Positions 5,847 through 40,841 of a DNA stretch of 64,000 nucleotides are shown one piece after another; position 1 is the stretch's first letter, and each line of letters begins with the position of its first letter. Position numbers and translations under genes: made by a program. Location of the stretch: the NCBI GenBank assembly GCA_010093605.1, contig MU004182.1, positions 1,969,195 to 2,033,194 on the forward strand, read 5' to 3'. Source of the stretch: Lophium mytilinum. Taxonomy: Eukaryota. Below the pieces are notes generated by a model. That model was not told the DNA's origin. It did not search any database and saw only the letters and a list, made by a program, of their open reading frames with translations.

Positions 5847-6215
5847 TTGCTGGAGCCTCGGGAGGCTGGGCGGAAGCGACTCCCGCCTTTCCTGTAGGCG
5901 GGCAAGGCAGATCGGATCGTGGCTAAAATAGCGTAATAGACTTGTTGAATCATTTTAGACCTTAAGGCATCGCTTGGAATGGTCTAGGATAGAAGCAGAT
6001 AGTTATTCCCAAGAAATGGCGGACGCTATTAAGGTTTTGCTGGACACTCGGGAGGACGGGCGGATGCAGTTCCCGCCCTTCCTGTAGGTGGACAAGGCAG
6101 ATCAGATCGTGGCTATTATAGCGTAGCAGCTTCGTTAAGAAAGTTTTGAACTATAAGGAATCTCTTGGAATGCTCTAGGATAGAAGGAGATAATTGTTCC
6201 CAAGAAATCGCCGGC
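5847..6215. repeat. Diverged tandem duplication, 190-bp unit
   Basis: TTGCTGGA..CTCGGGAGG...CCTGTAGG...CAAGGCAGATC.GATCGTGGCTA...CTAGGATAGAAG...CCCAAGAAAT starts at 5847 and 6037. Confidence 0.85.
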
Positions 6216-24052: not shown

Positions 24053-26307
24053 CTTGACCGAGGTTCCAGCTGAACTACCTTGCGGCTGGGTATAACGGGA
24101 AGAATAAAGTGAGGTCTTAAGAGGTGTTCCGGTACGGTAGGAAGGAGATGGAGAAAAGGATGGTGGAGATCGAAAGACAAGAAGGGGTTCTATGCCTTAT
24201 GTAGACGACGGAAATTAACAGACTACGGAATACAGAAAGACGGCGGAGGATGGTGAGATGCAAATAGAATCATCTTAGGAGCTAAAGCTTTGCTACAAAG
24301 AGTCCCAACATTGAAAATGGGATATTGATGGTTCCATTAGACGGGAGTCATAGGCGAGAGAGAGATATGGAACGGCCTAGACTCGCTGGATAGGAAACCC
24401 TTGGTCCTACGTTTCGCCTATGGGTGAAGTACGTTAAATTTTCCAAGCTTGGTACACACAAACATCCCAAGGATTTCACAAAATAGCGGCGTCCAAGATG
24501 AAGGCCATGCTCTCTGCATTGTTGAAATCATTTTGTATAAACTTCAACAAATCGAATGAAGATGAATGAAGCAATGCGAACCCATCCACAAAAATGCCCT
24601 ATTATTCAGCGACTTGCCGTCCATTATGCTCGTATGAAAATATGCAAACTAACCCAGCTTGGAAGCTAGCCTTTTGAATGCTGCGAACAATAACATCATC
24701 TGAGATAACTCAACAAGCTTACCAAGTTGTTCAAATCGGTTCGTGCTATTTTAAGCCTTGTGGAGTCCAGCTAACTGTGGCAGCCCGGGTTATGCATATA
24801 TATAGCGCGCGCTGCATCAATAAGAGAGCTTCTAAAAAAGGCACTGGCCTATGCATACATAACGTTCCATTGCTCATCACACTACTGGTGCTTTCAGTGT
24901 CTATCTTAGATTTGTTGAATGTCATATTGTCTATATTTGCGAATCCCGCTAAATGTTGGACGGGACAGGCTTTTTCATGCAAAACATCTGCGTATGACAG
25001 GTCTGGTTGTATCATAGACCCCGCCCTCTCTACTTGTATCAACTGAGCGCTTATGGGTATGCAGTCCTCGACATGGCTTGGTTTGGCTTCATGCTCGTCG
25101 TTGTTGTGAGGAGATCTGTCGTGATAACCGGGCTTCGCTTCAATGAGAAACTCGTAACTTTAGTTTGGTATCCGCGAAGGCGACTGCATCGGCTGCTTAT
25201 TTGCTGGATTGCTCTTAGTCTTCCATGAGACATATCGATCTTGGGCTGAGCGGTGTCGGTTGATCGCAACAAAACCAAATCTGGAATTCAGACGTCAGAT
25301 CAGGGCTCTTGTGTGCCTAGGTGGGTAGCTGAAAGAGGGTCGTTTCGAATGCCTGAGCCTGTGACGACTGCTGAAGCCGATATAGATGAAGGAGGTACTG
25401 GGAAAAGGCAGCAATGCAGGGGTCTCAAGGTCGATCAACTCGTAGCATGCTCGGGCAGAGCTACACCGGGCCGATGACGGCCTCCCCGCACGATCATGCT
25501 ATTGATGGCTTCCAATGCTGTATGTTTAGTACTCGTTATCAGGGCCAACGTCGTGACACGCCGGGCCGGAAAATCAACACCATAGCGTGCTAAGATCTCA
25601 TTGGATGGAATAGACATTTAACAACCACGGTCGGGAAAAACTAGAATTTCTAAAAATTCCCATCGACCATGCTGCCAGGAAATGTCGACCGCGAATATGG
25701 CACGATGATGGAAAGCTTAATGCGGAAGTCTAAATTTACCAGCTGAGCCTATGTTAAGTTTTCTTGGAGTAATACAATATATTTACGAAGCTATATCTTC
25801 TCAGCATAGATCACAGATAAGAACAAAGTAGATGGCGAAAACCAAGTACATCGACTTATTACATAATTGTGCAAGACAAAGCGAGTGAAAGCTGGCCAGC
25901 TGGTCACACGTAATCTCAACGTAGAGTCGAGTAACATCGATTCTTGTCGTCTTCCCCGAAAGGGACGGGGATAACTGCGTTCGTTGACACCCGACAGCCA
26001 TATCACGTTGGGCGGGTTGCGAATCCTTTCCATCAAAGTGACAACTTCAACAGTGACGACGAAAGCGAAGCCCTCTTTGACCTCAATGATTTGCTCTAAC
26101 CACATGTCACTACATCACAGCCAACGCACGAAGGTATCGCAACCCAAAAAAGGACACCCATGTAGCAATACAATAACCTCAACTCTCATTAGGGACAACA
26201 AACTCTAGAGATAGGTAGGGAGGTACGTAATGTTAGGATAGGAAACGTGGAGGTAAAGCAAGCCACCCCTTTCCCTCCCCTTCACACCTCAACCGCATCA
26301 ATCACAA

Positions 26308-29300
26308 TCACCAAATCTGGCCCTCACTTTCTCCCGATCCCGATGCCAAAACTCCACCAACTTCCTTTCTTTCCGACTGTCCCTTTCCCTTCCTCAGCTT
26401 CATCAACCCCCTCCCCTCTGTCCCCGTCTCCCTGGATCCGCTCTGTCGCCCTTCGTTCTGGAGCGGCTGCAAGTCCCACGTCCTTCCGCTGGATATGCGA
26501 CTCAGCGGCCGGATCTGGCATATCTCTACGTCCGAGCGGCTTCGACGGAGGTCCCCCTGGTGTATCAGCGAGGGTTCGCTGGACGCTGGGCGGCGCCGTG
26601 AAGGTAGACTCTCTTCGCTCGTGACGTGGCGAGGACGCGCGGGAGGTGCTCGGTTGGGGGGGCCGAAGGGCGGGCTGCGCAAGGTTGAAGTCTTGCCCCG
26701 AGAGGCGTCTGTTCCATGCGGCGCTGGGCGGCTCGGGGGATGTGGGCTGTTCCCGATGGTGAAAGACTTGGTCGCTGGCGTCTCGGGAGCCGTTTGGGAA
26801 CGCAAGTAGAGAAGCGGTCGCGTGGATTGCGGGTAGGGGCTGGAGGCGTGGAGGCGTTGCTGGAGTTGGCGTTGACGACGGCGGGACATGGATGGGAATC
26901 GAGTCCGAGTTCGAGTCTGAAACGGACGCCGTGGTTGTCGCCCAGCTTGACTCTGTGTAATTTGCTTCCCTTGATCCTGACGCCACCTTTTCAGTCGCTC
27001 CATGTTGACTCTTCCCCTGTCTAGGCTGTCCAAACGCTCCCGTTCCATGCGTAGTCTGCGCATCCGCTCTTGCTCGTGCTGATGGGTCTTGCTTGTCGTT
27101 GTGGATTCTTGGTCCATCATTTGCCGGTAGCTCTCCCACTGTGCCTGAAGGACGTCGTTCGTACGCCGAATAAGAAGGCTTTCCGATTCCTGTGGCTCTT
27201 GGTACATCCAGGGAACTTTCAGTTCTGAGTACGATCCGATGCGAGGAACGATCGGACGAGATACTGGGCTTTGGAGCCTTTTTTCTGAGCCACGCTGCGA
27301 GCGATGCACGTGGACCACGCAATGCTGACGCAGAGGGACCGTGAAATGAGTTTGATTCGGAGGCTGTCTCTGTCGGTCCTGATCGAGGTCCCAGTTCTGT
27401 CGAGGTTCGGGATCCTGGGGTGCTTGAATGTTGGCCTGATGTACCTTTTTCCGCCGCTGTTGCTCGCTCTCCCGTAGACGACGTATGCGACCCTTCTGCG
27501 GATACTCCACTGCTTGGGGCTCCGATTCTCTTGAATGTCTCTGCCGCGGTGTGATACGCTGATCGGAGTTTTGGGACGTCCCTTGCAGATGACCCCGACG
27601 ATTCCGAGCAACTCGATCTTTGGGCAGCAGATGCTCTCTTGACGGATATTCTCTGGGCATTCGATCGTTGGATTTTAGGTCTGCAGTATGAGGAACTCGA
27701 GGAACTCTCTGCCTGTGCACGTACTCTCCCTTGCGATAGTAGTGAGCGATCCGGTCCTGGCCCCCAAGTTGAAAATCTGCGTCTCCATGGATCTTGTATT
27801 TGCGGCTCTGATGTTCGTGATGGACTGGTCGAGTGGAGTATGGCTTGGACGGAAGACTTGCGCCCTGGTTCTTTCTGTGCGGCCGGCCGTGATCCTCGTC
27901 GTTGGACTCCCTTGAGCCCCTGTACATTCGGTACCCTGGTCGACGATCTTCTTGCAGGCCGTACTTCTTCGAATGCGTCATCCGACCCGTCGACTGCCCT
28001 CCTGTAACTCGTTGCACTTGCACCCTGCGCCGAGTCCTCCAACTCATGCAAGGAACTGGTATCCGGAGCACTCGTCGTCGGTGGCTGCGCTGCCTCGCTT
28101 TGCTCTCCTCTCCTGCTATCCCTTGCTGGCGTGCGACGGATTGGTCGTGTTTCTTGGAGCGGCGGAACCAAAGGAATCGTTGGCCTCTTGCAGGTTGAGC
28201 GACTCTCTTCAGATGCGCTCGTTCGTTCTGTTGAAGAGCGCCATGATGACGCCGTTCCTTGACGCGCCTGAGCCCGAGCCATCTGACACGACCTGATTTG
28301 GAACTTTGTTCCAGCTTTGAGACATTCATCTTTGCCTGGCCTGCCCCAGCTAGCTTCCTGTGGCGAGAAAATATCCACAGCTTGCACTTGCGAGCGCCTC
28401 CTGTTTTGCCTTCCTGTGTCACTGGCGCCCTGCGGATGTTCTGCTTGCTCCCTTTCAGGTCTACGGGCTTGACTATACCCATGTGCTTCCTTCGACAAGA
28501 AAAGAGCCTCAGCTTGCGCTTCAGATTCCCTCCCGCTTGGTCTTCTCGAATCCCGTTGTGCTTCTGGGTTTGCCTCGGGTCGACTGGTATGACGGTTCCA
28601 AGGTGACCAGTCCTCTGCGCTTTCCGAATTCTTTTCTTGAAGCATCTCAATGCGAGAGGGTTCCGGGTGGCTCGTCGCCGCACGAACAGGTGGCGATGCC
28701 CCCAACCCATCAAATGACGCCGCTTGGTAACCAGTGGCTTGACGCGATGGAGGTTTAGAGCAAACAGGCTGCGACGTTTGGCCCTGAAGGGACTTGTGAC
28801 GAGGTTCGTCACCAGTGGCAGTCCGGGTTGTCGGAGTCCTTGACGGTACCGACACCCTATGCGCCTTTTCAAGGGCATCTGTCCTTTGGCGACTGGTGGT
28901 AAGGCTTCGAATCGTTGCATTTCTTGACGGCGCCGTTTGTGCTTCTTTGGGGGCTGCTGAACTTTTTCGACTTGCAGTTCGGATCGTTGCACTACGTGAT
29001 GGTGGTGCCGATGATGCTTTTTGTGGAGCTGCTGTGTTTCTTCTTGACCTTTGTTGCGTTCCCCCAGGAGCACTTCCTGGTGCTTGGCCTGGTGCCGCGT
29101 CTTGAAAGGGCTCCTTGTCCCGTGGCCGGTCACGGAAAGAAGGCTTCCGCGGTTGTTCGCTAGGTGGTTGCTGAATTGGCTGAACGTCGGGTTTGGCCCA
29201 TGTGGGAGTATCGCGGATAGGATAGTCCGGTTGGTTGGTCTGAGTTTTTCGTCTTCTGGGAACCGTTTCCAGCGGTATGGGAGGTCCAAGTGATGCCGGC

Positions 29301-29391
29301 TCGCGACCGAGATCTTCCGTTGGGGCTCTAGACTGCCGTCTAGGTCCAATAGTAGGTTCAGTTTCTGCCGGTAATGTAGCTTGTCGTTCAA
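26308..29391 (-). CDS. Candidate overlapping +1-frame ORF (1027 codons, R/K/H-rich; first ATG at 28920)
   Basis: Stop-free for ~3.1 kb on the same strand as the giant ORF; translation not demonstrated. Confidence 0.4.
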   Translation of the reverse strand: MNDKLHYRQKLNLLLDLDGSLEPQRKISVASRHHLDLPYRWKRFPEDEKLRPTNRTILSAILPHGPNPTFSQFSNHLANNRGSLLSVTGHGTRSPFKTRHQAKHQEVLLGERNKGQEETQQLHKKHHRHHHHVVQRSELQVEKVQQPPKKHKRRRQEMQRFEALPPVAKGQMPLKRRIGCRYRQGLRQPGLPLVTNLVTSPFRAKRRSLFALNLHRVKPLVTKRRHLMGWGHRHLFVRRRATRNPLALRCFKKRIRKAQRTGHLGTVIPVDPRQTQKHNGIREDQAGGNLKRKLRLFSCRRKHMGIVKPVDLKGSKQNIRRAPVTQEGKTGGARKCKLWIFSRHRKLAGAGQAKMNVSKLEQSSKSGRVRWLGLRRVKERRHHGALQQNERAHLKRVAQPARGQRFLWFRRSKKHDQSVARQQGIAGEESKARQRSHRRRVLRIPVPCMSWRTRRRVQVQRVTGGQSTGRMTHSKKYGLQEDRRPGYRMYRGSRESNDEDHGRPHRKNQGASLPSKPYSTRPVHHEHQSRKYKIHGDADFQLGGQDRIAHYYRKGEYVHRQRVPRVPHTADLKSNDRMPREYPSREHLLPKDRVARNRRGHLQGTSQNSDQRITPRQRHSRESEPQAVEYPQKGRIRRLRESEQQRRKKVHQANIQAPQDPEPRQNWDLDQDRQRQPPNQTHFTVPLRQHCVVHVHRSQRGSEKRLQSPVSRPIVPRIGSYSELKVPWMYQEPQESESLLIRRTNDVLQAQWESYRQMMDQESTTTSKTHQHEQERMRRLRMERERLDSLDRGRVNMERLKRWRQDQGKQITQSQAGRQPRRPFQTRTRTRFPSMSRRRQRQLQQRLHASSPYPQSTRPLLYLRSQTAPETPATKSFTIGNSPHPPSRPAPHGTDASRGKTSTLRSPPFGPPNRAPPARPRHVTSEESLPSRRRPASSEPSLIHQGDLRRSRSDVEICQIRPLSRISSGRTWDLQPLQNEGRQSGSRETGTEGRGLMKLRKGKGQSERKEVGGVLASGSGESEGQIW

Positions 29392-32300
29392 CTTGGGTTG
29401 CGTCCTGAGCCGGTGGAGTTCTCAAAGATTCCTCAGTGGGCGGTGATTCAGGATCAAGAAACTCATCACTCTCATCCACAAACTCCTGGGGAAGGGACTG
29501 ATTATCTTGGTACACGTTGTCTAGCGCATGCGAATCATCAAGCACAGATTGTCGTCGAGACTGTGCAGTTTCAAAGGACTCGGTTTCTGGCTCTGCCACG
29601 GTGACAGTAGTGGCTCTCGTAGGCTGTCGTGATGCCGCATCCGTTGCACGCCTAGATGGAGCCTCAGCACGAGAGGTTGGGTGTCTGGATACGACCTTGC
29701 TCGGCTGTCGGCTTCGAGAGGCCGGGAGTTGTTCTTCCACATTGACATCTGTGGTAACGGATTCCGGAGGAGGTTCTGCTGGTTGCTCCTCGGGCGGAGA
29801 AAACGTCGTCGACCGTCGAGAAGCTGCTGTCGGCTGCCCAGAAACTCCAATTGAAGTCTCTCTAGAGATTGGAGCGGGCTCAGTTTGCTCAAGCTCGTCT
29901 TCTTCAGGCTCGGGCTCAGCTGTGAAGTTATCTTCGAAAGTCGAAGTACGGCTAGACTCTTGAGAGGTGGGTTCTGAGGGGAGCTCTAGTGGCGTTGCGA
30001 TTGGTGTTTCTTCTTCGTCCTGAGACCAGTACTCGTCGATTGGATCGGACTCCCCAATCTCCTCGCTCAACTCTGACTCAAAGGTGGAATGGCTGGAGAG
30101 CGGGACAGGCTCATCTTCGATGACTTCCTCACGCGTGGTTGGGACACCAGTAGGCTGTCGTGAGACTCTAGTGGCGGCTCTCGGAGGTAGAGGAGGAGGT
30201 TGATCTTCGATTGTGGGTTCTTGATAGATCTCCTCGTCCAGAGAGTCAGGCGCCACAGTCTGGTCCTCATCAACTGCCCATGGCTCGTCTTCTGAATGCG
30301 TGTCCTCTTCCACCTCGGACTCACTTTCCGGCTCCGGCTCCGGCTCCGGCTCACGTACGGCCTTCTTGATCCTCGAATATGGTGTTTTGACTTTTGGGAA
30401 AGAAGTCTCACTCTCGTCTTTGACCGTTGGCTTCCTCGAAAGGGCTGTTGGCTGTCGGGAAACGACAGTAGGTGTCTTTGATAACGCTGTTGGCACCCGG
30501 GATACGAGGGTAGGTTGGCGAGACACGACTGTAGGCTTTCGAGAAGCTAGAGAAGTTTCCTCTGCCTCTGGAATTGGTTCATCCATCAAGGTAGGTTGGC
30601 GAGAGATGACTGTTGGCTGACGAGACACGGCCGTAGGCTTCCGGGACACTGGAAGGGCCTCTTCTAGCTGTGGACCCAGTTCTTCATACGGAAAAGTAGG
30701 CTGCCGAGAAAGTTCCGTTGGCTGGCGAGATGCGACGGTTGGTACCCTCGTTACCACCGTAGGCTTTCGGGACACTGGAAGTGTTTCTCTGTTCGCCTGT
30801 GGATCAGCTCCTTCAAATGCGGTTGGCTGTCTCGAAACGGTCGTTGGATTACGCGATAAGACAGTGGGCGCTCTAGTCACTGCTGTAGACTTCCGGGAGA
30901 CTACAGGAATTTGTTCTTCCGCGGTAGGCTGACGTGAAATGGTTGTTGGCTGCCGAGACATCTTCGTGGCTTTCCTAGACACGACAACAGGCTTTTGTGA
31001 AGCAAACCCGTCCTCGACAACCTCTGCAAAGATTGGTGTGTCTGTGGGGGCTCGAGTCGGCTTTCGGGAGACGACAGTGGGTTGTCTAGACACCACTGAG
31101 GGCTGTCTAGGTGCCAACCATGGAAGACGAGAGCGTCCCGTGGAGACACGTCGTGGAACTTCAGGGCGCTCGGCATCGAGAACTTCGGCGATTTCTTTCT
31201 CAACGGGAGGGCTTGTATCGCGCCGTATCATATCAGCGGCGAACGAAGATTCCCGATCCAGCGCCTTCACTGCCTGCTCGGATGAGAGGTCTTCCAGAGA
31301 TCTGAGCTCATCAAATTGAATGGGTTCTGAAGGAGGCGAATTTATGAACTCCGAACTCGACGCATCGGAGCCGAACTCGTCCTCAAGCTGATCTTCGGTC
31401 ATCTCGATCAGAGTCGGATTCTTGTCAAGTCCTTGGCCCTCTGGATTAGCCTCGATATACTGTTCGACGGGCGACTCTTCGCTGATATCCTCTGGGCCAG
31501 GTGTTGCTGTCGCAGGGGTTGTCGTAGCTCGTCTCACTACTGGCGGAACCGATTCGTCAGAAGGGGTTCCAGAAACAGAAACGCCCAAGTCCAACGCTGC
31601 GTGACTAGGAACTATAGGCTCTCTTTCCAAGACGCTAGGTGTTTTCTCCAGCCTCGTAGGTTCTCGCTCCAACTTGGTCGTAGCGCGTCTGAGAAGCTCG
31701 ACTTCAGGAGCTTGAACCAGAGTAGCTGCTCTCTCGACTGTTGTTGGCACTCGTGTATGAACAGTAGGGTGCCTTTCAAGATTCGTTGTAGCACGGCGAA
31801 CAGGAACCTGTAGCTCCGGCTCGGATTCGTACCTTATCGGCGACTCTGACAGCGGTGCCGATGGAACACCCTCGGATCTAGAACGTCGAGATTCCCTTCT
31901 CTTGACGACAGTGAGTCTTCGAGTTGGTTGCCTCGAGGCGTCTTGCACGGTGAAGGTGTCTGAATCCGTCCGCCGTCTCGTGGGCTGCTTCGATAAGGGA
32001 ATTGTGTAGCTGCCCAATTCACGCGATTCAACGGCGGTTAGTTGTCGTGAAACTATCGTTGACTGTTCTGAAGTGGCGGTCGGCTGTCTCGAGACTACAG
32101 TGGGCTGCCTGGAGACGATGGTTGGCTGCATTGAGACCACAGAGAGCTGCCCAGAGACAATAGTTGGCTTCCGAGAAACGACCGTGGGCTGTCTCGAAGC
32201 CACTGCTGAATGCTCTTCTTCAGGCATGGCCTCGGGCTCAACCTCTGGTGGAGATGGTGTGCTTGTTTCAGGTTGCTCAACTTCCGAGGAAGAGGAAGAG

Positions 32301-35300
32301 GACGCAAAAGCTTCTTCGACGTCTGTCGACTCCGTAGAACTGCTGGAGTCCATAGAACTGCTTGACGAGGAATCATCCTTTTGGACAAGCATCTCAGTGA
32401 AATCATCTGATGGCGACGGCGTTTTGTCGGGGACAATCAGCCTGATCTCGACAACCTCTTCTCTTCCTGAAGTGATCTCATCCTTCATGTCTTCAGAAAG
32501 AGACATGAAGACATCACGTCGCATCCGGTACATCGAAGGGGTACTGGTAGTGGTCTCGGAGCGGGAGAACTGCCTGGCTGGCAAAGGTGCCGCTTCGTTC
32601 GATGGGCGCGTAATCGATCGGGTAACCTGTCGAGATACGGGTTTCGACTGGTGGGGGCCAACGAGAGGGGTCTGATCAGGCTGCTGTTCGGTCGCTTTTC
32701 GCGTGACTGCTCGTGTGACCTGCCGGGATACGGGCTCTGATTCAGGGGCCTCCGATGAGGTTCCAGATGATGAAGACGAGGTCGCCACGATGATGGATTG
32801 TTTGCGACTAGAGGGCGCAACTTCGTGAAAAGTAGAAGCTCGGCGAGACTGTACAATAGGCTGGTCCGCAACCTCGTCGCTCGACCCACCAGATAGCGAA
32901 GATGTCAATCGTAAAGTTTCGTAGCGAGGTTGTTCTTCTCCAGGTACTCTGATTTCGACAACGGTCTCCGGCTCTGACGAACTAGATTCTTCGCCCTCAC
33001 TTCCTTCGTCTTCTTGATCCTCGGCCGTCTCTTCATCCGAAACGTCATCCTCGGTCGATTCGTCTCCAGCAGATTCTTCGCTGCTGGATTCCCAATCTTC
33101 GTCGATTTCTTCGTCTTCCTCAACTTCCTCTCCGGAGGGTTCACTGCTAGATGATTCCAAATCTGGCTCGGATTCCTCCTCTTCGCTATAGTCTTCATCG
33201 ACGTTACTATCTTCAGAAGATGATGAAAAAGATGACACTGAACTTGGCGTCGAGGTGAGTCTAGTGTCGACCCTCGATATAGGTTCTTCCAACACGACAG
33301 AAGTCTTGCGCCTGGTTGGGACTCTACTAACAATCTCGGGCTCTGCTTCAGCCTCAGCTATGGCACCTTCTGGCGATAAACTGCGCATGGTGAGGGTGCG
33401 AGACTTAGTGGAGCTCTTTCGACGAGTCGGTCGTCTCGAGCTCGTTTCTAGCTGTGGCAGGGATGCCTCGACTTCGGGCTGTTCTTCGACCTGAACAGCG
33501 GCAGCTTCGGCGTCCTCTGGCGGCGAAGGGTCCTGCATGGTAGCCACTCGAGATTTAGTCGAGTTCTTACGGCGAGTCGGCTGTCTAGAGACGGTTTCTG
33601 GCTCCGGCACGGGTTCCTCAACCTGGGGTTGTTCTTCGACCTCAATAGCAGCAGCTTCGGCGTCCTCTAGCGGCACAGGGTCTCGCATGGTAGCTGCGCG
33701 AGATTTCGTCGAGCTCTTGCGGCGAGTCGGCTGTCTGGATATGGTGACCGCCTCCGGCAGGAGTTCTTTAATGACAGGCTGTTCCTCAACGAGAGCTGCG
33801 GCAGCCGCAGTACCTTCCGACGGTGAAGGAACTCGCACGGTCACGGAGCGAGACTTGAGGGAGGACTTGCGTCGAGTTGGCCGTCTTGAGATTGCCTCTG
33901 GCTCGGGCAAGGGTTCCAGCTCGAGTTCCACGGGATCGATCGATTCTGTAGTCGTAACCGTTTGAAGGATGAAACCTTCCTCCGGGGGTTGTTCTTCCTC
34001 GTCTTCTTGTTCAGGTTCGGACTCATCTGACGACAAGCTTTCATCTCCGGCTTCTTTGGCTAGCTCATGCGGGAAAGTTGGCGCACGGGATGGCAAAGTC
34101 GTTGGGTGCCTGGTCCGAACCCGGTCGGTTTGCTCAAACTCAGGCTCGAACTCCGGCTCAAGATCTACGGCTTCATCTACCAAGGACGACGAAGATGAAG
34201 CGTGTGAGATTGGCTCTTGAGATGTAGCTTGCCGAGTGGGCTGTCTTGTCGGCTGACGAGACGGAAGCCGTGTCTTCTGTCGGGTCGAGATACGCTCCGC
34301 AGGTTGCGGCTCTTCTCCAGCCGGCTTTAGCTCTTCCTCGGCGAGATGCAACTCTTCTTCAGCAAGTTCAATAGCCTCATCCAAGTCGAAAGACCCTGGC
34401 ATTTTAGCTTTCCAAGTAGATTTCCGGGTCGGCTGCCGGGATGGAAGCTGGGTTTTGCGCCAGGACGGTATCTGTGACACGGTTGGGAAGTCTTCCTCGC
34501 TTGTCTCAACCTCGGAACCTTCCGAAAGTGGATGCGTAACTTGGGGAGTAAGGTTTCCTGTTGGTTGACGAGACGGAAGTTCTGTCTTTTTCCGAGTCAA
34601 AATACGCTCCATAGTCTGCTGTTCTTCCTCGACGTCCACATCAACTACAAGCGTAGCTTGCCGAGTGGGCTGTCTGGTCGCCTGACGGGATGGAAGCTGA
34701 GTAGGGGCGCGGCTCAGCGGTCGCGGTTCGTCCTCAACCTGTACAACAGGCGCAGTCTCAGCCGAAATAGGCAACGTAGCTTGCCGAGTTGGCTTACGAG
34801 ATGGAAGCTGAGTCGGAACACGGTCGACAGGTAGCGGCTCTTCGTCGACATTAACCTCAGCTAGTAACGTAGCTTGCCGAGTGGGTTGTCTAGTTCCATG
34901 GCGGGATGGAAGCTGAGTAGGAACACGGCTCACGGGTCGCGGCTCGTCCTCAACTTGTTCAACAGGTGCAGCCTCGGCTGACGTTGGCAACGTAGATTGT
35001 CGAGTTGGTTTACGAGATGGGAGTTGAGTCGGAACACGCTCGACTGGCAGCGGCTCTTCGTCGACAGTTGTCTCGATGGGTAGCGTAGCTTGCCGAGTAG
35101 GCTGTCTGGTCGGCTGGCGGGATGGTAGCTGAGTAGAAGCACGCCTCACAGGTTGCGGCTCGTCTTCGACTTGTTCGACAGCTGCAGCCTCAGCTGACGC
35201 TGGCAAGGTAGCTTGGCGAGTTGGTTCACGGGATGGAAGCTGGGTCGGGATACGCTCTACAGGTAGGGGCTCTTTCTCATCTCGTTGAACAGCTGCAGCC

Positions 35301-38300
35301 TCGGCCGACGTTGGCAGAGTGACTTGGCGAGTCGGCTTTCTTGTTGGCTGACGCGATGGTGGCTGCATCGTGGGTTGTTTGACGATACCAGTGACTGGAG
35401 CTTGGAAAGCTACCGAGTCTTCCTCTTTGTCGTACACAGGGATCGCTTCGTCCTTGACGTCCTCGTCGGAGACATCAGAGCTCTCGGAGAGCAGCGGGGA
35501 GAGTGTCCTTTGTCTCGCGGGAGTGGATACTACAGGATCCGGGGCAGGCTCTGAGTACGCTCTGGTGTGGCGTCGCGACGGCTCGGTCTGCTCATCGAGC
35601 GTATCATCCGAGACAGGAGTAGGCAGCTGCTCAAGGACACTGGCGATAGCTTCCAGAGCGGCAGGCAATTCTTGCTGCGCAGCTTCGAGCCATTGCTGTA
35701 TCTCCTCAATCGGCGCCTGGGAGGACGGCTTTCGCGAGATGCTTTGAACTCGAGTCAAAGCACGGGAGAGGGGCTTCGTCGAAACAACGCGCTCCAGCGC
35801 TTTCGGGACTTCATCAATAACGGAATCGATGGACTTACCTCGAAGATGCTGAGTGGGCGCTCTGCTCATAACCTGAGTGGGCGCTTTGGTCAAAATATTC
35901 TCCAGGTCTGCAGTGATGTTGTCAAGCTCGTCCATGAGTTGCGCTCGGGCTTCGGACAGATCTGACATCTCTCTTCGAGTCTTTCTCAAGAACTCCTCGC
36001 CATTGGATGATAATTCTTCCGATGCATCTTGCGCCTCATCTTGAAGGAGTGCTCTGGCTTGAGTCTCTGTTGGTGGTGAATACGAGGTTGGAGGCGGTGC
36101 GTCTTCAACGGCAGCGTTCTGGAACTGCTCTTCGTCTTTCTCGTCGGGCTTGGCCTCGAGATCAACACCAAGATCGTCAGCGGTAGACTCGACAAGGTCG
36201 ATAAGATCAGGTGCTGAGGTGACAGCTTTCTTCAATACGGCTGGGGGGTCATTGATAGTCGGTCCTAACTTTCCGGTCTTGCGCACGTTCAACCTTTGTG
36301 CGGCAGTCGGTGGACACGGAATGCAAGAAGTACTATCCTGAACACTCTGCACCAACACCTGCGATAGTCGTCTAAGCTCGGCGAGTCCTGGGTGAACCGC
36401 CTGCAATTCGTTGATGACCGAGTGAATGGCGCTGTCATGCTGTGTGATGAGCTGGTTAATGATGTCTCCCATGTCTTTGGCGAATGAGTCGTCGCAAACG
36501 TTGATCGAGATGGTTCTGCCACTTCTACCCTGACCGCAGCAATCCGAGGCTGATTGTCTTCTGCATCGAGATGGGCGACTCTTCGCCAGGCTACAGGGAG
36601 CGCATCTTGAAACTCCACACGATGGGACATCCGCGGGCTTGGACAGCACAGTGCGGCGTGGCTGGATTCGAGCTCCAGGATAGCCAAAATCTTTGGTGTG
36701 GCGGCGACCGAAGCCCCCACGGTCGTCGACATCGTCGGGAACAAGCTCATCATCGTCTTCTACAGGCTCGCTATTCCTGGTGGAAGACTCCGCAGGTTCA
36801 GACGCACTTCGACGGTGGGTCGAGCGTTTCCTGAAGTACTCATCTCGCGGGTCATCGGGTCCATCTCCACTTGAGCCAAAGTCACCGGGGACTATCTGTC
36901 TTGGCTGTGTCGACTTTCGCTTGGATTTTACAACAACCCCGTCATCAGGGAAAGAGACAGACGAAGTACGAGCTCTTTCCGACGGCTTCGGCTTTGGGTC
37001 ATCAGAACACTGAGTTGCACGCCGATTCGAGGATGTCCTAGGTTCAACCTGAGTAGACGACTTTCGCAAGCTAGACTTCCTCCGTTGCCGAATTCCCACA
37101 TCGAACGGCTCAGGGGGTGTAGCGTCATTTGTCTTTCGACGCGGATGCGTCCGAGAGCGTCCATCAGGTTCGGCGGTTGAAGGCCGGCGTGAAGTCTTGC
37201 GTACCGGTGACACTAGTTCTGCGTGATCGGAAGACTCTGCTGGATGAGTTGCAGCCGGGTCTGAAGGCAGTGGAGCCGTAGGTTTTTCCGAAAGACGTCG
37301 AGTGCTTTGCCTCCTAGGCTGCGCACATGATGCATCGTCGTGGTCAGCTGGCACTGATCTACTTGACAACTTCCGATCTCTAGGCGGTTTCCCGAGGGGC
37401 CCGGCATCGTGCGGTGGTACTTTGAAAACATTTGTAGACCTCCGACGCGATTTCGAATCAGTCTCGGCGTCTTTGTCTGGTGCGTTTGTGTCGACATTCG
37501 TTGATGCCTTGGTTGACTTTCGGCGGGACGTGGGAGTCCTTTCCTCATTTGTCGTTCCGTTTGTCGGTTCACTTACATAAAGCTTTGGCACTAGTTTGGG
37601 AGTTATCTCGGACTCATGCTGTGTTAGTGATCCATCCACCTGTCGCCGAACGAAGGGACTGGCTTGATGCGGCGGGTTGGCTGCATCTGGAGGTGGCTTC
37701 GAAAGCGGTAGATATTGGTCAGAGGGAGCTTCAGCGTCCTGGGAGTATTGACGCGACTTCAGCTTCGGGATGACCGCTTCCACGGCCACTGTTGCGTTCA
37801 CTTGACCCGCCTTGGTGGCTGGATTTGGAGGTTCCAGAGGAGTTGGTGGCGGAGGCTGCGTCCTGGTCTCCCAGTACGACTTCGCCGCCCCCACGACGGC
37901 AGGCTTCGAGGGTGAGGGGGAAGATCCTCGTTCCAGGAGACGTCCGTAGGGGTTCTTTCCCTGGAGGTACGCTGGGGATTTTGCCCGAGCAGGAACGATT
38001 TGGGGCTCGCGAAGCTCCTGGGTAGGGGTGAGGGCTGAACGGTGAACCGAAGAACGCCTGACTGGGGCTGGGTCGGCAATCTCAATCGGTGCTGGGCGTG
38101 GCTTCCTCCGAACAGAGTGCTCTCGGGCCTCGATGGATTGATCGAAGTCGTGCGAAGACGGTTGAGATTGACGGCCATTCGTGCTCGTGCTGGCCATAGT
38201 CGGCTGCGTTCTAGTGGCCGACGGGTTGTTTCGGGAAGTTGTCGGCTGGACCTGTCTCGGTGGATCGGAAGAATTGATGGCTTTGATGCGTGAGGCTATC

Positions 38301-38395
38301 GTACTTTGAGTTGGGTCGCGTCTAGGATTGGCTGGGGTTTTACCTCGATCTGATCGAGGCTGGGAGGACGGATCAGGCTGGGAGACTCGTCTCAT
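26324..38395 (-). CDS. Giant (4023 aa) intronless, low-complexity protein with dozens of S-R-[QKAV]-[PA]-T motifs
   Basis: Uninterrupted 12-kb ORF from ATG 38395; coherent repeats, acidic tracts and a short coiled-coil-like region. Confidence 0.9.
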   Translation of the reverse strand: MRRVSQPDPSSQPRSDRGKTPANPRRDPTQSTIASRIKAINSSDPPRQVQPTTSRNNPSATRTQPTMASTSTNGRQSQPSSHDFDQSIEAREHSVRRKPRPAPIEIADPAPVRRSSVHRSALTPTQELREPQIVPARAKSPAYLQGKNPYGRLLERGSSPSPSKPAVVGAAKSYWETRTQPPPPTPLEPPNPATKAGQVNATVAVEAVIPKLKSRQYSQDAEAPSDQYLPLSKPPPDAANPPHQASPFVRRQVDGSLTQHESEITPKLVPKLYVSEPTNGTTNEERTPTSRRKSTKASTNVDTNAPDKDAETDSKSRRRSTNVFKVPPHDAGPLGKPPRDRKLSSRSVPADHDDASCAQPRRQSTRRLSEKPTAPLPSDPAATHPAESSDHAELVSPVRKTSRRPSTAEPDGRSRTHPRRKTNDATPPEPFDVGIRQRRKSSLRKSSTQVEPRTSSNRRATQCSDDPKPKPSERARTSSVSFPDDGVVVKSKRKSTQPRQIVPGDFGSSGDGPDDPRDEYFRKRSTHRRSASEPAESSTRNSEPVEDDDELVPDDVDDRGGFGRRHTKDFGYPGARIQPRRTVLSKPADVPSCGVSRCAPCSLAKSRPSRCRRQSASDCCGQGRSGRTISINVCDDSFAKDMGDIINQLITQHDSAIHSVINELQAVHPGLAELRRLSQVLVQSVQDSTSCIPCPPTAAQRLNVRKTGKLGPTINDPPAVLKKAVTSAPDLIDLVESTADDLGVDLEAKPDEKDEEQFQNAAVEDAPPPTSYSPPTETQARALLQDEAQDASEELSSNGEEFLRKTRREMSDLSEARAQLMDELDNITADLENILTKAPTQVMSRAPTQHLRGKSIDSVIDEVPKALERVVSTKPLSRALTRVQSISRKPSSQAPIEEIQQWLEAAQQELPAALEAIASVLEQLPTPVSDDTLDEQTEPSRRHTRAYSEPAPDPVVSTPARQRTLSPLLSESSDVSDEDVKDEAIPVYDKEEDSVAFQAPVTGIVKQPTMQPPSRQPTRKPTRQVTLPTSAEAAAVQRDEKEPLPVERIPTQLPSREPTRQATLPASAEAAAVEQVEDEPQPVRRASTQLPSRQPTRQPTRQATLPIETTVDEEPLPVERVPTQLPSRKPTRQSTLPTSAEAAPVEQVEDEPRPVSRVPTQLPSRHGTRQPTRQATLLAEVNVDEEPLPVDRVPTQLPSRKPTRQATLPISAETAPVVQVEDEPRPLSRAPTQLPSRQATRQPTRQATLVVDVDVEEEQQTMERILTRKKTELPSRQPTGNLTPQVTHPLSEGSEVETSEEDFPTVSQIPSWRKTQLPSRQPTRKSTWKAKMPGSFDLDEAIELAEEELHLAEEELKPAGEEPQPAERISTRQKTRLPSRQPTRQPTRQATSQEPISHASSSSSLVDEAVDLEPEFEPEFEQTDRVRTRHPTTLPSRAPTFPHELAKEAGDESLSSDESEPEQEDEEEQPPEEGFILQTVTTTESIDPVELELEPLPEPEAISRRPTRRKSSLKSRSVTVRVPSPSEGTAAAAALVEEQPVIKELLPEAVTISRQPTRRKSSTKSRAATMRDPVPLEDAEAAAIEVEEQPQVEEPVPEPETVSRQPTRRKNSTKSRVATMQDPSPPEDAEAAAVQVEEQPEVEASLPQLETSSRRPTRRKSSTKSRTLTMRSLSPEGAIAEAEAEPEIVSRVPTRRKTSVVLEEPISRVDTRLTSTPSSVSSFSSSSEDSNVDEDYSEEEESEPDLESSSSEPSGEEVEEDEEIDEDWESSSEESAGDESTEDDVSDEETAEDQEDEGSEGEESSSSEPETVVEIRVPGEEQPRYETLRLTSSLSGGSSDEVADQPIVQSRRASTFHEVAPSSRKQSIIVATSSSSSGTSSEAPESEPVSRQVTRAVTRKATEQQPDQTPLVGPHQSKPVSRQVTRSITRPSNEAAPLPARQFSRSETTTSTPSMYRMRRDVFMSLSEDMKDEITSGREEVVEIRLIVPDKTPSPSDDFTEMLVQKDDSSSSSSMDSSSSTESTDVEEAFASSSSSSEVEQPETSTPSPPEVEPEAMPEEEHSAVASRQPTVVSRKPTIVSGQLSVVSMQPTIVSRQPTVVSRQPTATSEQSTIVSRQLTAVESRELGSYTIPLSKQPTRRRTDSDTFTVQDASRQPTRRLTVVKRRESRRSRSEGVPSAPLSESPIRYESEPELQVPVRRATTNLERHPTVHTRVPTTVERAATLVQAPEVELLRRATTKLEREPTRLEKTPSVLEREPIVPSHAALDLGVSVSGTPSDESVPPVVRRATTTPATATPGPEDISEESPVEQYIEANPEGQGLDKNPTLIEMTEDQLEDEFGSDASSSEFINSPPSEPIQFDELRSLEDLSSEQAVKALDRESSFAADMIRRDTSPPVEKEIAEVLDAERPEVPRRVSTGRSRLPWLAPRQPSVVSRQPTVVSRKPTRAPTDTPIFAEVVEDGFASQKPVVVSRKATKMSRQPTTISRQPTAEEQIPVVSRKSTAVTRAPTVLSRNPTTVSRQPTAFEGADPQANRETLPVSRKPTVVTRVPTVASRQPTELSRQPTFPYEELGPQLEEALPVSRKPTAVSRQPTVISRQPTLMDEPIPEAEETSLASRKPTVVSRQPTLVSRVPTALSKTPTVVSRQPTALSRKPTVKDESETSFPKVKTPYSRIKKAVREPEPEPEPESESEVEEDTHSEDEPWAVDEDQTVAPDSLDEEIYQEPTIEDQPPPLPPRAATRVSRQPTGVPTTREEVIEDEPVPLSSHSTFESELSEEIGESDPIDEYWSQDEEETPIATPLELPSEPTSQESSRTSTFEDNFTAEPEPEEDELEQTEPAPISRETSIGVSGQPTAASRRSTTFSPPEEQPAEPPPESVTTDVNVEEQLPASRSRQPSKVVSRHPTSRAEAPSRRATDAASRQPTRATTVTVAEPETESFETAQSRRQSVLDDSHALDNVYQDNQSLPQEFVDESDEFLDPESPPTEESLRTPPAQDATQVERQATLPAETEPTIGPRRQSRAPTEDLGREPASLGPPIPLETVPRRRKTQTNQPDYPIRDTPTWAKPDVQPIQQPPSEQPRKPSFRDRPRDKEPFQDAAPGQAPGSAPGGTQQRSRRNTAAPQKASSAPPSRSATIRTASRKSSAAPKEAQTAPSRNATIRSLTTSRQRTDALEKAHRVSVPSRTPTTRTATGDEPRHKSLQGQTSQPVCSKPPSRQATGYQAASFDGLGASPPVRAATSHPEPSRIEMLQEKNSESAEDWSPWNRHTSRPEANPEAQRDSRRPSGRESEAQAEALFLSKEAHGYSQARRPEREQAEHPQGASDTGRQNRRRSQVQAVDIFSPQEASWGRPGKDECLKAGTKFQIRSCQMARAQARQGTASSWRSSTERTSASEESRSTCKRPTIPLVPPLQETRPIRRTPARDSRRGEQSEAAQPPTTSAPDTSSLHELEDSAQGASATSYRRAVDGSDDAFEEVRPARRSSTRVPNVQGLKGVQRRGSRPAAQKEPGRKSSVQAILHSTSPSRTSEPQIQDPWRRRFSTWGPGPDRSLLSQGRVRAQAESSSSSSYCRPKIQRSNAQRISVKRASAAQRSSCSESSGSSARDVPKLRSAYHTAAETFKRIGAPSSGVSAEGSHTSSTGERATAAEKGTSGQHSSTPGSRTSTELGPRSGPTETASESNSFHGPSASALRGPRASLAAWLRKKAPKPSISSDRSSHRIVLRTESSLDVPRATGIGKPSYSAYERRPSGTVGELPANDGPRIHNDKQDPSARARADAQTTHGTGAFGQPRQGKSQHGATEKVASGSREANYTESSWATTTASVSDSNSDSIPIHVPPSSTPTPATPPRLQPLPAIHATASLLAFPNGSRDASDQVFHHREQPTSPEPPSAAWNRRLSGQDFNLAQPALRPPQPSTSRASSPRHERRESTFTAPPSVQRTLADTPGGPPSKPLGRRDMPDPAAESHIQRKDVGLAAAPERRATERIQGDGDRGEGVDEAEEGKGTVGKKGSWWSFGIGIGRK
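33400..33900 (-). repeat. Coding tandem repeat, 150-bp (50-aa) unit
   Basis: SR[RQ]PTRRK[SN]S.KSR codons recur at 33421, 33571, 33721 and 33871. Confidence 0.85.
34560..35360 (-). repeat. Coding tandem repeat, 216-bp (72-aa) unit
   Basis: AGCGGCTCTTCGTCGACA at 34833 and 35049; EPLPVERVPTQLPSRKPTRQ.TLP units. Confidence 0.85.
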
Positions 38396-38770
38396 GGATG
38401 TCGAGGACTGGTGTTGTTATGGGCTGAGAGTTCAGTGGATGGGTTGAAAGGGCTGTTGAGTAGGTGTTTGGGTGGCGTGCTGGTTGGTTGAAGGTGCTGA
38501 ATAGAACGATACTGAAGGCAATGAGTCGTAGGATGTAAATAGGAATGGGTCAAAGGTGCACACGTTAGAGCTGTTGAGTGTTTGGGAGTGGAGTCATGAG
38601 AAGGAAAGGAACAGAAAGCAGGACACGAAGGAACAGATGCAAGGCGCCAAGAAGTGCGCAGAAAGTGCAGGTGCTTCCTCAATTGCAGACCCGTGGGAAG
38701 TACCACCCGCTCCAAGCGGAAACTATACTGTACATCGCCGCCCTCAAGCTATGAAAATGCTATATACAAT

Positions 38771-39697
38771 CTACTTCAGAGCAGCTTGCAGACTCTCCAG
38801 AACCTTATTGCAGACCTGCATTAGCTTGATTGCAACTTGCATCTTTCGCATGTAGAGTATAACGAACCTCGAGCTCGATCTTCGCCTCGGCAATATCCTG
38901 TTCGCTGCCGCCGCCGGTGGCAACCTTTTGCGCTTCTGCGATCTGGTTCCGTACAGCCTGCTCGGTTGATTATATATCAGCGAATGTCAGTCCAGCACGT
39001 TCCAGGGAACTTACGTCGGCACTGAAGTCCTCGAGAGGGTATCCCTCCACGGCGTTGATGCTCAATTGCGAGTCTGGCTGAACCACGGCAAAGCCTCCAG
39101 ACACTAGAATGTCTTCCGTTAGCCTTCACGGTACGTTGTTGCTGCCAATCTCCTACATCCCCACAATCATCGCCATACGGATTCCCTCTAAGCCGAGTAC
39201 GCCAAAACGCAAGAGTTCGAGCAACGTACGGAAGAATTGCTTGCTGCCTCCGCTTTCCTCAATGATCTCCACCAAGCCGGGCTTCAATTGTTCGATCGAC
39301 GGAACGTGGTTGGCGAGAACACCCATCTCTCCGGACTCGGCGGCGAAGTTCACTTGTACACTAGATTGGCCGATGTTCAGTATAGAAGAGCAGAGTGTGA
39401 TTGAAGAGGTAGCCGGGCGACCGGTTGACGTACACATCTTGGGACTTGTAGATGGACTAGAGAGAAAGCTCAGTCAGCGCTCGAATCTTGAAGCCAGCCT
39501 CATAGAGACAGGGGATTATCCATTGAGCAGCATCAGATGCTTGCCGCGCCAGTGGAGATGCATACCTGGTGAGGGAGCGCCAGAGACAACTTGATCTTGT
39601 CGGCTACGGCGTCGGCGTATCCTCGTCGCTGGATCGGGGCGCGGAAAGTGGCGGGGCTCGCGCGGATGGCTGCCCGGGCAATGCGGAGAGAGCTCAT
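38771..39697 (-). CDS. ATP16: Mitochondrial F1-ATP synthase delta subunit, 6 exons
   Basis: Presequence MSSLRIARAAIRAS...RRGYADAV, then KIKLSLALPHQ, ESGEMGVLANHVPSIEQLKPGLVEI, SGGFAVVQPDSQLSINAVE, AEAKIELEVLESLQAALK*. Confidence 0.97.
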
Positions 39698-40841
39698 GGT
39701 GTTGTCGAGGATGGGGCGGATGCAATTGGTGGTGGAGAGCAGAGCTTGTTGTTGAGATTGGAGCTGGAGAAGCCGAAGTTTGTGCCAAGACATCACGTGA
39801 GCCCGAGACTGTATCGCGCTAAAAACTTCAGCTCTCAGCATCACTGAACATCTTCATCTTCGAGTCAAAAAAAGCCAGATCCTATTTAGACGATGGCAGA
39901 GTACCCTCTTTCTCATTCGGCTTGCATTCGGTGAGTCAGTCACGAGCTTGCATGAGACCTAATGAGCCGCAATCACAATACCGAACACAGTTCAAGATGA
40001 CCTATCTACGCAATATCTTTCATTAGTCGTTTTGAATGCTAGAAAATACAGAAATTCGCGATGTCCTTCGATCATCTTCCTTCGAACATCTTGGAACTGC
40101 GTTGCCGCGATCAGTCTACCTTGCACCCTTAGTCTCGATTTCTCCGTGAGTCCGTAAAACGAGCACGCTGGTGTTGCACAGTCATCTACAACACCACAGC
40201 TCTATCTCGGTAGAAAGTGTTGGAGGCTCTTAGAGTCACTCAAAAACAGTGACCTGACTGGCAGTGTAGCATACTTTGCATCACGACCCTGTGTTCTGTT
40301 CCATCTGGGGTGACTTCAGACGGAGTCAGCCAACCATGGCTTTACATCGTACGTATATTGTCACACCTTCCCTTGGTATTTGAACCTTTGGGATACGATA
40401 GCAGCTCATCATGATGCATTCCTGACAATTGTAAGCCATCTCCTGTATCCTGACTCGTTCCAAGGCGATTCGCTCCAGCATAGCGACCTTTCAACTGTGA
40501 TAGACACCCAACATGTTTCAGTCGCATTCGTATCCGAGACGACACGCTCGTAGATATCGAAAGCTTGTGCTTTACCCTTTACGACTGACCGGTGTCCCGG
40601 CACACGTCCTACAGCAGGCGCAAATCCACCAATGAAACCTGCCCAGACTTTCCAACCGGGGTAGGCACATCATCCCATACTCGCGCAGGGGTTCGATTCA
40701 ACAAGGCAGAAAATAAACTCTTCCAATACTAAACCCTGATTCCAGATGCCGCCGCTTATATTCTGATGACACCCGGCCTAGCTCTCCTTCTCAGCCTGCT
40801 AAGAGAAGCCAAGCGCCTCCTCCAAAAAAACAACACTGAAC

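Follow-up and report, generated by a model that had tools for sequence, protein, structure and literature searches.

A +1 ribosomal frameshift at the sequence YCC_UUU_CG has been demonstrated by mass spectrometry for the influenza A virus protein PA-X and for human PLEKHM2, the latter with an efficiency of about 1%, and a related +1 shift at UUU_CGN has been proposed for amalgaviruses and for the yeast virus ZbV-Z. The mechanism described for such UUU_C sites is that the P-site tRNA-Phe re-pairs from UUU to UUC. In PLEKHM2 the site UCC_UUU_CGG is located at positions 1545-1553 with the +1 stop at 1789-1791, a site in ASXL1 is predicted, and the PLEKHM2 report states that no cellular frameshift into an internal overlapping open reading frame (ORF) had previously been confirmed in vertebrates. 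In amalgavirus ORF1+2 all four CGN codons are tolerated and the overlaps span 287-968 nt, and +1 frameshifting of antizyme genes is described in fungi. Here we analyze a 64,000-nt stretch of DNA from the filamentous ascomycete Lophium mytilinum (assembly GCA_010093605.1, contig MU004182.1; the whole stretch is termed the window) that contains a giant ORF whose 3' third is open in two frames of the same strand. The frame of the giant ORF is called frame 0, and all frames are given on the minus strand.

Nuclear genes very seldom employ a conserved programmed frameshift. Saccharomyces cerevisiae ABP140 and EST3 undergo +1 frameshifts, and the yeast sites use CUU_AGG or CUU_AGU, not UUU_C. In animal dual-coding genes two same-strand frames of one exon each encode a conserved protein, one product is often basic and disordered, and the overlaps are about 100-350 codons in length; GNAS (XLas/ALEX), CDKN2A (INK4a/ARF) and POLG (POLG/POLGARF) achieve this by alternative promoters, splicing, or leaky or non-AUG initiation. 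When we looked for literature on frameshifting or dual coding in fungal cellular genes, only viral and vertebrate work was found. The gene in the window is defined by the following elements.

26324..38395, minus strand: giant frame-0 ORF of 4023 codons, overlapped by the +1 open run in its last third
26308..29424, minus strand: +1 open run measured from stop to stop, with 1037 sense codons at 29421..26311
29104..29110, minus strand: putative +1 slip site CCC_UUU_C, read in frame 0 of the window as CCC UUU CAA; conservation of the +1 frame begins here
29036..29110, minus strand: junction block of about 75 nt, reading PF(Q/R)xAAPG..PGxxPGGT in frame 0 and (S)PFxTRHQ....LLGER.KGQE in +1

The +1 frame is bounded by stops at 29424-29422 and 26310-26308, and the frame-0 stop at 26326-26324 is separated from the downstream +1 stop by 16 nt; all three stops are TGA. 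Upstream of this region the +1 frame is interrupted 60 times in 2991 codons, or about once per 50, and the longest +1 open runs elsewhere in the giant gene reach 140-166 codons. The +2 frame of the tail has 36 stops, i.e. it is not spared. These values bear out a sequence-only reading of the window, which had reported a +1 frame open for more than 1000 codons, two stops 16 nt apart and only short alternate-frame runs in the rest of the gene. The giant frame-0 product is disordered, rich in S, P, E, R and T, and carries SRQPT-type repeats. Within the ORF there are two tandem repeats, at 33398-33805 and 34652-35274, with periods of 150 nt (2.3 copies) and 216 nt (2.9 copies) and 77-82% matches; both periods are multiples of 3, and the repeats encode PTRQ/SRQPT units.

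The sequence-only reading had cautioned that a scarcity of NTA and NTG codons in frame 0 lowers the frequency of +1 stops, and the frequency of T at the second position of frame-0 codons does drop from about 0.14-0.23 upstream to 0.09-0.14 in the tail. This effect is real, yet it is insufficient. Synonymous shuffling of frame 0 in the window, the check that the same reading had proposed, yielded 9.6 +/- 2.3 +1 stops with a minimum of 3, and none of 1000 shuffles was stop-free; the longest +1 run averaged 293 codons and peaked at 793, so a stop-free +1 frame of about 1000 codons was never reached. Permuting the codons of the tail gave 14.6 +1 stops with a minimum of 7. The arrangement of the relevant codons differs as well. 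All 18 NTA codons of the tail precede C or T and none of its 18 NTG codons precedes A, as compared with 35 of 69 NTA codons preceding a purine and 25 of 133 NTG codons preceding A upstream. When the +1 frame is instead treated as the primary frame, 34.8 frame-0 stops are expected (minimum 22 in 1000 shuffles) and none is observed. The openness of either frame is not derivable from that of the other.

Orthologous DNA was obtained as six metagenomic loci recovered by a pattern scan of metagenome contigs. Three of these (L002, L004 and L006) are 99.9% identical, with only 13 and 4 differences in close-pair comparison, and were counted as one lineage, leaving four independent loci. All four have a giant ORF, with 1805-2917 codons upstream of the junction, that is followed by a tail open in both frames.

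L001: both frames open for 469 codons past the junction, where the contig stops
L002: both frames open for 657 codons past the junction
L003: both frames open for 583 codons past the junction
L005: both frames open for 448 codons past the junction

Upstream of the junction these loci have one +1 stop per 34-60 codons, and after the junction none of the four has any. Frame 0 is open apart from one isolated TAG each in the L002 and L005 lineages. The scattered ortholog stops that the sequence-only reading had named as evidence against two coding frames were thus absent from +1 and, in frame 0, amounted to a single TAG in two lineages. Given frame 0, 1.5-3.8 +1 stops are expected in the homologous tails and 0 are observed; the proportion of shuffles that were stop-free in +1 was 10% for L001, 0.2% for L002, 1.8% for L003 and 4.4% for L005. 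Given +1, 11-19.7 frame-0 stops are expected, and none of 500 shuffles per locus was stop-free.

The two frames also have relatives among predicted proteins. A phmmer search of 1.84 billion representative sequences with the +1 product returned 10 matches of 116-721 aa (best E 2.5e-13), comprising hypothetical proteins of the Pleosporales genera Bimuria, Massarina, Nothophoma and Didymella as well as ORFs from metagenomes and Logan. The matches have in common the core PLATxLxSxPFVAKRRxPFAINLxRNKPxVTKRRPLxGxKRxHLxVGRRLTKNPLAR, with more basic motifs downstream. A search with the conserved N-terminal region of the giant protein found ten giant Pleosporales orthologs of 2370-3434 aa that are 29-42% identical to the window protein. 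Word-index searches with the frame-0 tail gave no match, either for the window tail against proteins of 2212-7041 aa or for the L005 tail against proteins of 1373-4370 aa. Since frame-0-tailed orthologs were found by means of the N-terminal region, these blanks reflect the need for shared 5-mers in low-complexity sequence. Neither the giant protein nor the +1 product matched a Pfam family, and the same was true of three +1 homologs and the L005 ortholog.

We then compared conservation in the two frames, for which the following positions of the window are needed.

29198..29224, minus strand: frame-0 motif YPIRDTPTW, just upstream of the junction and kept in all homologs
28918..28920, minus strand: first +1 ATG, 184 nt past the point where +1 conservation sets in and not conserved in homologs
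28648..28794, minus strand: +1 core SPFRAKRRSLFALNLHRVKPLVTKRR...RRRATRNPLAL, the best conserved part of +1, with a +1 codon-position signature
28150..28521, minus strand: +1 basic-aromatic motifs KRKLRLFSCRRK, KCKLWIFSRHRK, RVRWLGLRR and RFLWFRRSKK
26327..26371, minus strand: frame-0 C-terminal tryptophan/glycine (W/G)-rich motif KKGSWWSFGIGIGRK, matching the Pleosporales end ...GRWGWGWGRG

The motifs KRKLRLFSCRRK (28521-28486) and KCKLWIFSRHRK (28389-28354), the frame-0 terminus KKGSWWSFGIGIGRK and the ATG at 28920 are all located where the sequence-only reading had placed them. Three of these basic motifs (KRKLRLFSCRRK, KCKLWIFSRHRK and RVRWLGLRR) align with the Pleosporales +1 motifs QKRSxKLxGxRRKR, RRKLPRLLLxGRRSK and ARRKxLGM. 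The conservation of YPIRDTPTW in all homologs marks frame 0 as coding up to the junction. In all-against-all blastp comparisons of the tails, the +1 frame scored 87-164 bits versus 0-137 bits for frame 0 and was higher in 10 of 10 pairs. The reverse was true for the 1100 codons upstream that served as a control, where frame 0 scored 35-255 bits versus 0-35 bits for +1 and was again higher in 10 of 10 pairs.

Codon-position divergence over the whole tail was too saturated and too dependent on the alignment, and block-wise analysis was used in its place. The ratios of nonsynonymous to synonymous divergence (pN/pS) and the invariant columns were taken from gap-free, phase-consistent blocks of the four-locus DNA alignment.

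Block immediately before the junction: pattern of frame 0, with a pN/pS of 0.66 there versus 1.28 in +1
Junction block of 75 nt: near-invariant at all three codon positions, 104 of 132 frame-0 codon pairs identical, pS 0.10
APxYARKDDYYPRL block: frame-0 signature, invariant columns 11/20, 14/21 and 5/20, pN/pS 0.30 in frame 0 and 0.96 in +1
Core of 59 codons: invariant columns at frame-0 positions 1, 2 and 3 of 16/71, 38/71 and 39/71, a signature opposite to frame-0 coding
Two mid blocks: +1 favoured, with frame-0 pN/pS values of 1.04 and 1.76 versus 0.62 and 0.53 in +1
Three late blocks: frame 0 favoured, pN/pS 0.52-0.60 in frame 0 versus 0.71-0.98 in +1

The 59-codon core has a pN/pS of 0.45 in +1 and 1.15 in frame 0, and its codon differences include 104 that are synonymous in +1 versus 23 that are synonymous in frame 0. 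Among the changes synonymous in +1 are switches between AGR and CGN arginine codons that alter the frame-0 residue. When the window core is compared with the four loci the same pattern is observed, with 57% amino acid identity and 73 synonymous codon differences in +1 as compared with 27% identity and 9 synonymous differences in frame 0. Purifying selection on the tail is a mosaic, with frame 0 constrained in certain blocks and +1 in different ones. Both frames are open in five of five lineages, apart from the two isolated frame-0 TAGs; with this openness exceeding compositional expectation in several lineages and purifying selection present in both frames, the tail has the two properties by which dual coding is recognized. 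From these comparisons we regard it as very probable that the 3' third of the giant gene is a real and evolutionarily conserved dual-coding region.

The two tails also appear in public gene models. Five or six of the ten giant orthologs carry the frame-0 tail with its conserved terminal motif. Specifically, the end ...GRWGWGWGR(G) is present in Paraphoma, Plenodomus, a Joint Genome Institute (JGI) genome (P0029), L002 and L003, and variants of this W/G end are present in Lophiotrema, Pleomassaria, L005 (KWGWLWGK) and the window (...KKGSWWSFGIGIGRK). In Paraphaeosphaeria and Kalmusia the gene model instead fuses the +1 tail to the giant N-terminus, and a 465-aa Didymella model joins a frame-0-like N-terminus to the +1 part. 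The +1 ends are likewise similar to each other, with ...RRLFRDRG in Kalmusia, ...RRLFRGAWG in Massarina and ...QRLFRGARE in the +1 frame of L003. Public annotation thus already holds both products, in different genomes, with the overlap unrecognised. In the window the +1 tail is more basic (R+K 23% versus 15% in frame 0) and has more hydrophobic residues (22% versus 14%), and the frame-0 tail is rich in S, A, R and P. Both tails are predicted to be disordered. An AlphaFold2 (AF2) model of the +1 core from a 15-row alignment had a predicted local distance difference test score (pLDDT) of 56.6 with one 5-residue helix and no fold, and the ESM Atlas returned no usable feature match for the Nothophoma +1 protein, with all structural rows at a template modelling (TM) score of 0.22 or less and a model pLDDT of 0.45. 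The two proteoforms would have the giant N-terminal scaffold in common but end in different interaction modules, one being the W/G-rich end and the other an array of basic short linear motifs.

The giant-ortholog models of Pleomassaria (P0035) and Decorospora (P0036) bear a precomputed ATP-synthase delta/epsilon domain (PF02823), which is probably a merger of the gene model with a neighbouring gene. The cluster P0006, which has seven members from JGI metagenomes, is an uninterrupted predicted protein of 439-528 aa with the frame-0 motif YPIRETPSWTRPD followed about 50 residues on by the +1 core PFVARRRSRFALNL... and with the junction block missing. By its sequence it looks like a natural in-frame fusion of both frames through a deletion, and it may equally be a decaying copy since the ORF is short at both ends. 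A 116-aa ORF from a JGI metagenome (P0011) is the +1-like sequence closest to the window version, and within the core it switches to frame-0-like sequence (ATRYQASSF, versus ATGYQAASF in the window), as would be expected if its contig had been misassembled or carried a 1-nt indel. Finally, L005 has a lineage-specific insertion at 9448-10045, directly upstream of the junction, that is rich in His, Pro and Val and encodes PVHH-type repeats over about 150 codons in frame 0; the +1 frame is open for 232 codons there until a TGA ends it 2 codons ahead of CCC_UUU.

The onset of +1 conservation coincides with a potential slip sequence. CCC_UUU_C is invariant in frame 0 in all five DNA sequences, i.e. 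the window, L001, L002, L003 and L005, and in the four homologous loci it reads CCC_UUU_CGA. Each of these four giant ORFs (1805-3587 codons) contains exactly one in-frame YCC_UUU_CGN, and it is at this site. The last +1 stop upstream is located 105 codons before the site in the window, 96 in L001, 14 in L002, 45 in L003 and 2 in L005, and after the site there are no +1 stops over 448-933 codons in any of the five. Synonymous divergence is also sharply reduced here, with the pS of 0.10 in the junction block comparing with 0.5-0.7 elsewhere. In the Pleosporales proteins the +1 residue that follows Pro-Phe (D, E, G or V) would fit CGA, CGG or CGU in frame 0. No +1 ATG is conserved among the loci, and the window, L001 and L005 have no +1 ATG before the conserved junction peptide. 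A slip sequence located at the 5' end of a stop-free +1 ORF that has a +1 coding signature, together with raised synonymous conservation, is the set of features that characterizes the YCC_UUU_CG class. The homologs qualify as members of this class, and the window is not filed there by motif because CAA follows its UUU.

Two other frameshift types were considered and set aside. Antizyme-type +1 programmed ribosomal frameshifting (PRF) does not fit, as the codon after UUU is CGA or CAA and the only nearby frame-0 stop, a TAG in L002, is 6 codons upstream and not at the site. Canonical -1 PRF does not fit either, as the heptamer C_CCU_UUC is present only when read from +1, the shift that is needed is from frame 0 to +1, and the potential RNA structure has no covarying pairs and z-scores of -1.45 to +0.30.

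The explanation that we favour, with a probability of roughly 0.55 judged from the sequence evidence above, is that dual coding yields two disordered tails and that the +1 tail is reached by ribosomal frameshifting at CCC_UUU_C. Most ribosomes would stay in frame 0 to complete the 4023-aa protein with its W/G-rich end, and a fraction would shift +1 at CCC_UUU_C (29110-29104), where the P-site tRNA-Phe would re-pair from UUU to UUC. The shifted ribosomes would read about 930 +1 codons and give a product with the same 3097-residue N-terminal part joined to a different, more basic and disordered tail that would carry the conserved linear-motif core PFxAKRRxxFAxNLxRxKPxVTKRR...GRRxTxNPLA. That ribosomes do shift at this heptamer, how efficiently they do so, and what the two tails do are points that we infer from these comparisons. 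The sequence-only reading had proposed alternative C-termini, and this is supported, as both frames are open and conserved and neither the shuffling nor the orthologs spoke against it. With regard to the routes it had put forward, frameshifting fits best given the onset of conservation at CCC_UUU_C; splicing is disfavoured, though by the weak evidence that RNA-like contigs spanning most of the tail contained no spliced form; and an overprinted gene starting at ATG 28920 fits less well, as that ATG is not conserved and is located 184 nt after the onset, with independent initiation retained as a rival.

Several observations weigh against frameshifting at this heptamer. In the window CAA occupies the A site, and the 4023-codon giant ORF lacks any in-frame YCC_UUU_CG; Decorospora (PFQ) and P0029 (PFP) also have no Arg after Phe, so that only CC_UUU_C is universal. 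Among the Arg codons of these ORFs, CGA is common. Because Pro-Phe coding in both frames forces CCCTTTC, invariance of the heptamer may follow from dual coding rather than cause it. A stimulatory RNA structure is unsupported, as the 16 pairs of a hairpin that RNAalifold proposes downstream of the site are all invariant or broken with 0 covarying, and single-sequence z-scores are -0.34, -1.45, +0.30, -0.87 and +0.06. In the L002/L004 lineage a frame-0 TAG (L002:10147-10149) is present 6 codons upstream of the site, so that ribosomes translating the giant ORF should not reach the site in that lineage, and in L005 a frame-0 TAG (11395-11397, followed by CAG CCU) is present 90 codons before the conserved W/G end. 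In addition, Bimuria, Massarina and Nothophoma each have a stand-alone +1 gene model of 482-721 aa, and the RNA-like contigs described below neither bridge the slip site with 31 nt on each side, among those listed, nor are able to exclude rare spliced or internally started transcripts.

As to the two TAG codons, the one in L002/L004 is a lineage-specific nonsense change as judged by the close relative P0029, which has Trp at this position. Both tail frames are still open in the L002/L004 lineage despite it, and frame 0 is open and conserved beyond the TAGs of both lineages. Readthrough, short introns or recent nonsense mutations are possible explanations. Two short introns that would remove the L002 TAG (GTGACT...CCAG, 45 nt, and GTATCC...ATAG, 102 nt) have weak splice signals and were not adopted.

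One sequencing run, X1, which was only guessed to be RNA, provided low-depth contigs over the giant gene. The neighbouring gene at 38384-39985 on the minus strand has an X1 contig depth of about 3,000-12,000, versus 1-7 for the giant gene, and its contigs skip four short introns of 57-109 nt with CT..AC ends on the plus strand, equivalent to GT..AG on the minus strand. These introns indicate that X1 contains RNA. Over 26363-28426 and 28584-29122 the X1 contigs are collinear with the genome without indels or joints, indicating that in those spans the two frames are not an assembly artefact and that the assembled transcript is unspliced. No joint was reported within 26102-38383 as compared with five in the flanking genes (38799-40436), the strongly expressed neighbour accounting for four. 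This lack of a spliced form is weak evidence because contigs drop rare forms, and stretches of the giant gene that no contig covers carry no weight. Contig depth, which measures such changes poorly, rises gradually toward the 3' end and does not jump at 29110.

Dual coding could also be real with the +1 protein being an independent overprinted product that is unfused to the giant protein and made from a shorter transcript of its own with an internal promoter, or by internal or non-AUG initiation, a possibility that we consider rather unlikely but worth serious attention. It would account directly for the three stand-alone +1 models just mentioned, for the L002/L004 lineage holding both frames open with the giant ORF stopped just upstream, and for the missing CGN codon at the window site, and the climb in X1 contig depth toward the 3' end is in the direction it predicts. 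One or more +1 ATGs are present between junction and core at each locus, and the fourth +1 codon after the site is ATG in L002 and L003; the same codon is ACG in L001, L005 and the window and the residue there is Pro in Paraphaeosphaeria, Kalmusia and P0011. A conserved start codon is thus lacking, and the junction peptide is upstream of every +1 ATG in the window, L001 and L005. There is also no intergenic-like stretch, as frame 0 is continuous in three of four homolog lineages and in the window, and the change in depth is the gradual and poorly informative one noted above. Alternative splicing, by a rare intron that is not a multiple of 3 and ends near the junction so as to shift some mRNA to +1, is an improbable explanation. 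The Didymella, Paraphaeosphaeria and Kalmusia models do join frame-0 and +1 parts, presumably via predicted introns, and the length upstream of the junction is highly variable. Against this, X1 has no joint across the giant gene, with the reservation that rare forms can be missed, frame 0 is unbroken and coding-like up to the junction in four of five sequences, and +1 conservation sets in at a single fixed motif that bears no resemblance to a 3' splice site.

The two remaining alternatives deny that both frames are translated. If only frame 0 were translated, the open +1 frame would be a by-product of a hydrophobic-poor composition and +1 conservation would be hitch-hiking. The composition of the homologs does lower the expected +1 stops to the 1.5-3.8 given above, with a tenth of L001 shuffles stop-free; both products are predicted to be disordered (pLDDT of 56.6 for the AF2 core and 0.45 in the Atlas); and K/R exchanges in +1 can be A/G changes that are synonymous in frame 0. 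We nevertheless regard this as very improbable, since 0 of 1000 window shuffles were stop-free with the homolog fractions of 0.10, 0.002, 0.018 and 0.044 in addition, the codon-position signature of the core is the opposite of that expected (16/71 versus 38/71 and 39/71) with 104 changes synonymous in +1, and +1 has the higher score in all 10 tail pairs but in none of the 10 upstream pairs. The converse, that an obligatory frame switch makes +1 the sole true tail and leaves downstream frame 0 untranslated, would be in keeping with the better conservation of +1 across the tail, with gene callers having picked +1 in all 10 database matches and with the blank frame-0 tail searches among proteins of 1373-7041 aa. 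It is hardly credible given that 11-35 frame-0 stops are expected and, past the junction, the window, L001, L002 and L003 have none and L005 has a single one, that frame-0 blocks have pN/pS values of 0.30-0.60, and that the W/G C-terminus is conserved from Pleosporales to the window with full-length frame-0 models in at least five genomes.

With frameshifting at CCC_UUU_C as the preferred explanation, the closest described counterpart is PLEKHM2. Both are nuclear cellular genes in which an in-frame YCC_UUU_CG (in the homologous loci here) heads a conserved +1 ORF, free of stops itself though flanked by them, both show +1-synonymous substitutions and raised synonymous conservation at the site, and both have the same N-terminus with an alternative C-terminus, which is putative in the fungal gene. 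The differences are that PLEKHM2 is a vertebrate gene with an overlap of about 80 codons and UCC in the E site, whereas the filamentous fungal genes overlap by 448-1037 codons and have CCC; that the shift is confirmed in PLEKHM2 and putative in the fungal gene; and that the window has CAA in the A site, not CGN. With PA-X (UCC_UUU_CGU) and the amalgaviruses the fungal gene has in common a P-site UUU_C followed by an Arg CGN codon, which here is CGA in the DNA and would be CGG or CGU judging from the proteins. Those systems are in RNA-virus genomes, whereas this is a chromosomal gene with orthologs across an order, the fungal overlap is 3-10 times longer, and disordered tails take the place of a polymerase or nuclease partner.

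The likeness to fungal antizyme, ABP140 and EST3 is that these too are cases of cellular +1 frameshifting in fungi; the difference is that in the five of five sequences here there is no frame-0 stop at the site, and both products are long. Relative to GNAS, CDKN2A and POLG, the fungal gene differs in that no conserved start or splice was found and in an overlap of up to 1037 codons. Systems of this kind are known from PA-X, PLEKHM2 and the amalgaviruses; what appears to be new is a chromosomal case in fungi in which the overlap spans 450-1000 codons and selection is mosaic across both frames. We give even odds to the reading that a CCC_UUU_CGN shift of the PA-X/PLEKHM2 type equips a single giant disordered protein with alternative tails of 450-1000 residues, each under purifying selection since before the Pleosporales and the window lineage split.

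Elsewhere in the window, other ORFs resemble by eye a transporter, a monooxygenase and a fungal transcription factor. There is also an AT-rich island at 12001-14000 with a GC content of 0.319, as compared with 0.44-0.57 in the rest of the window, which may be a degraded repeat or a transposon relic.

If dual coding with frameshifting is correct, it would explain why Pleosporales genomes contain at least three incompatible models of this gene, one with a frame-0 tail, one with a fused +1 tail and one with a separate +1 gene. Antizyme aside, filamentous fungi would then have their first dual-coding gene that is accessed by frameshifting, and its overlap would far exceed in length any other of this type known from a cellular genome. 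The motif heads an overlap ten times longer than that of PLEKHM2 and does so in another kingdom. The UUU_C-type +1 shift would then be an ancient and general decoding option of eukaryotes, not a viral or vertebrate oddity, and the gene would provide a natural system for studying the co-evolution of two disordered proteins in one sequence.

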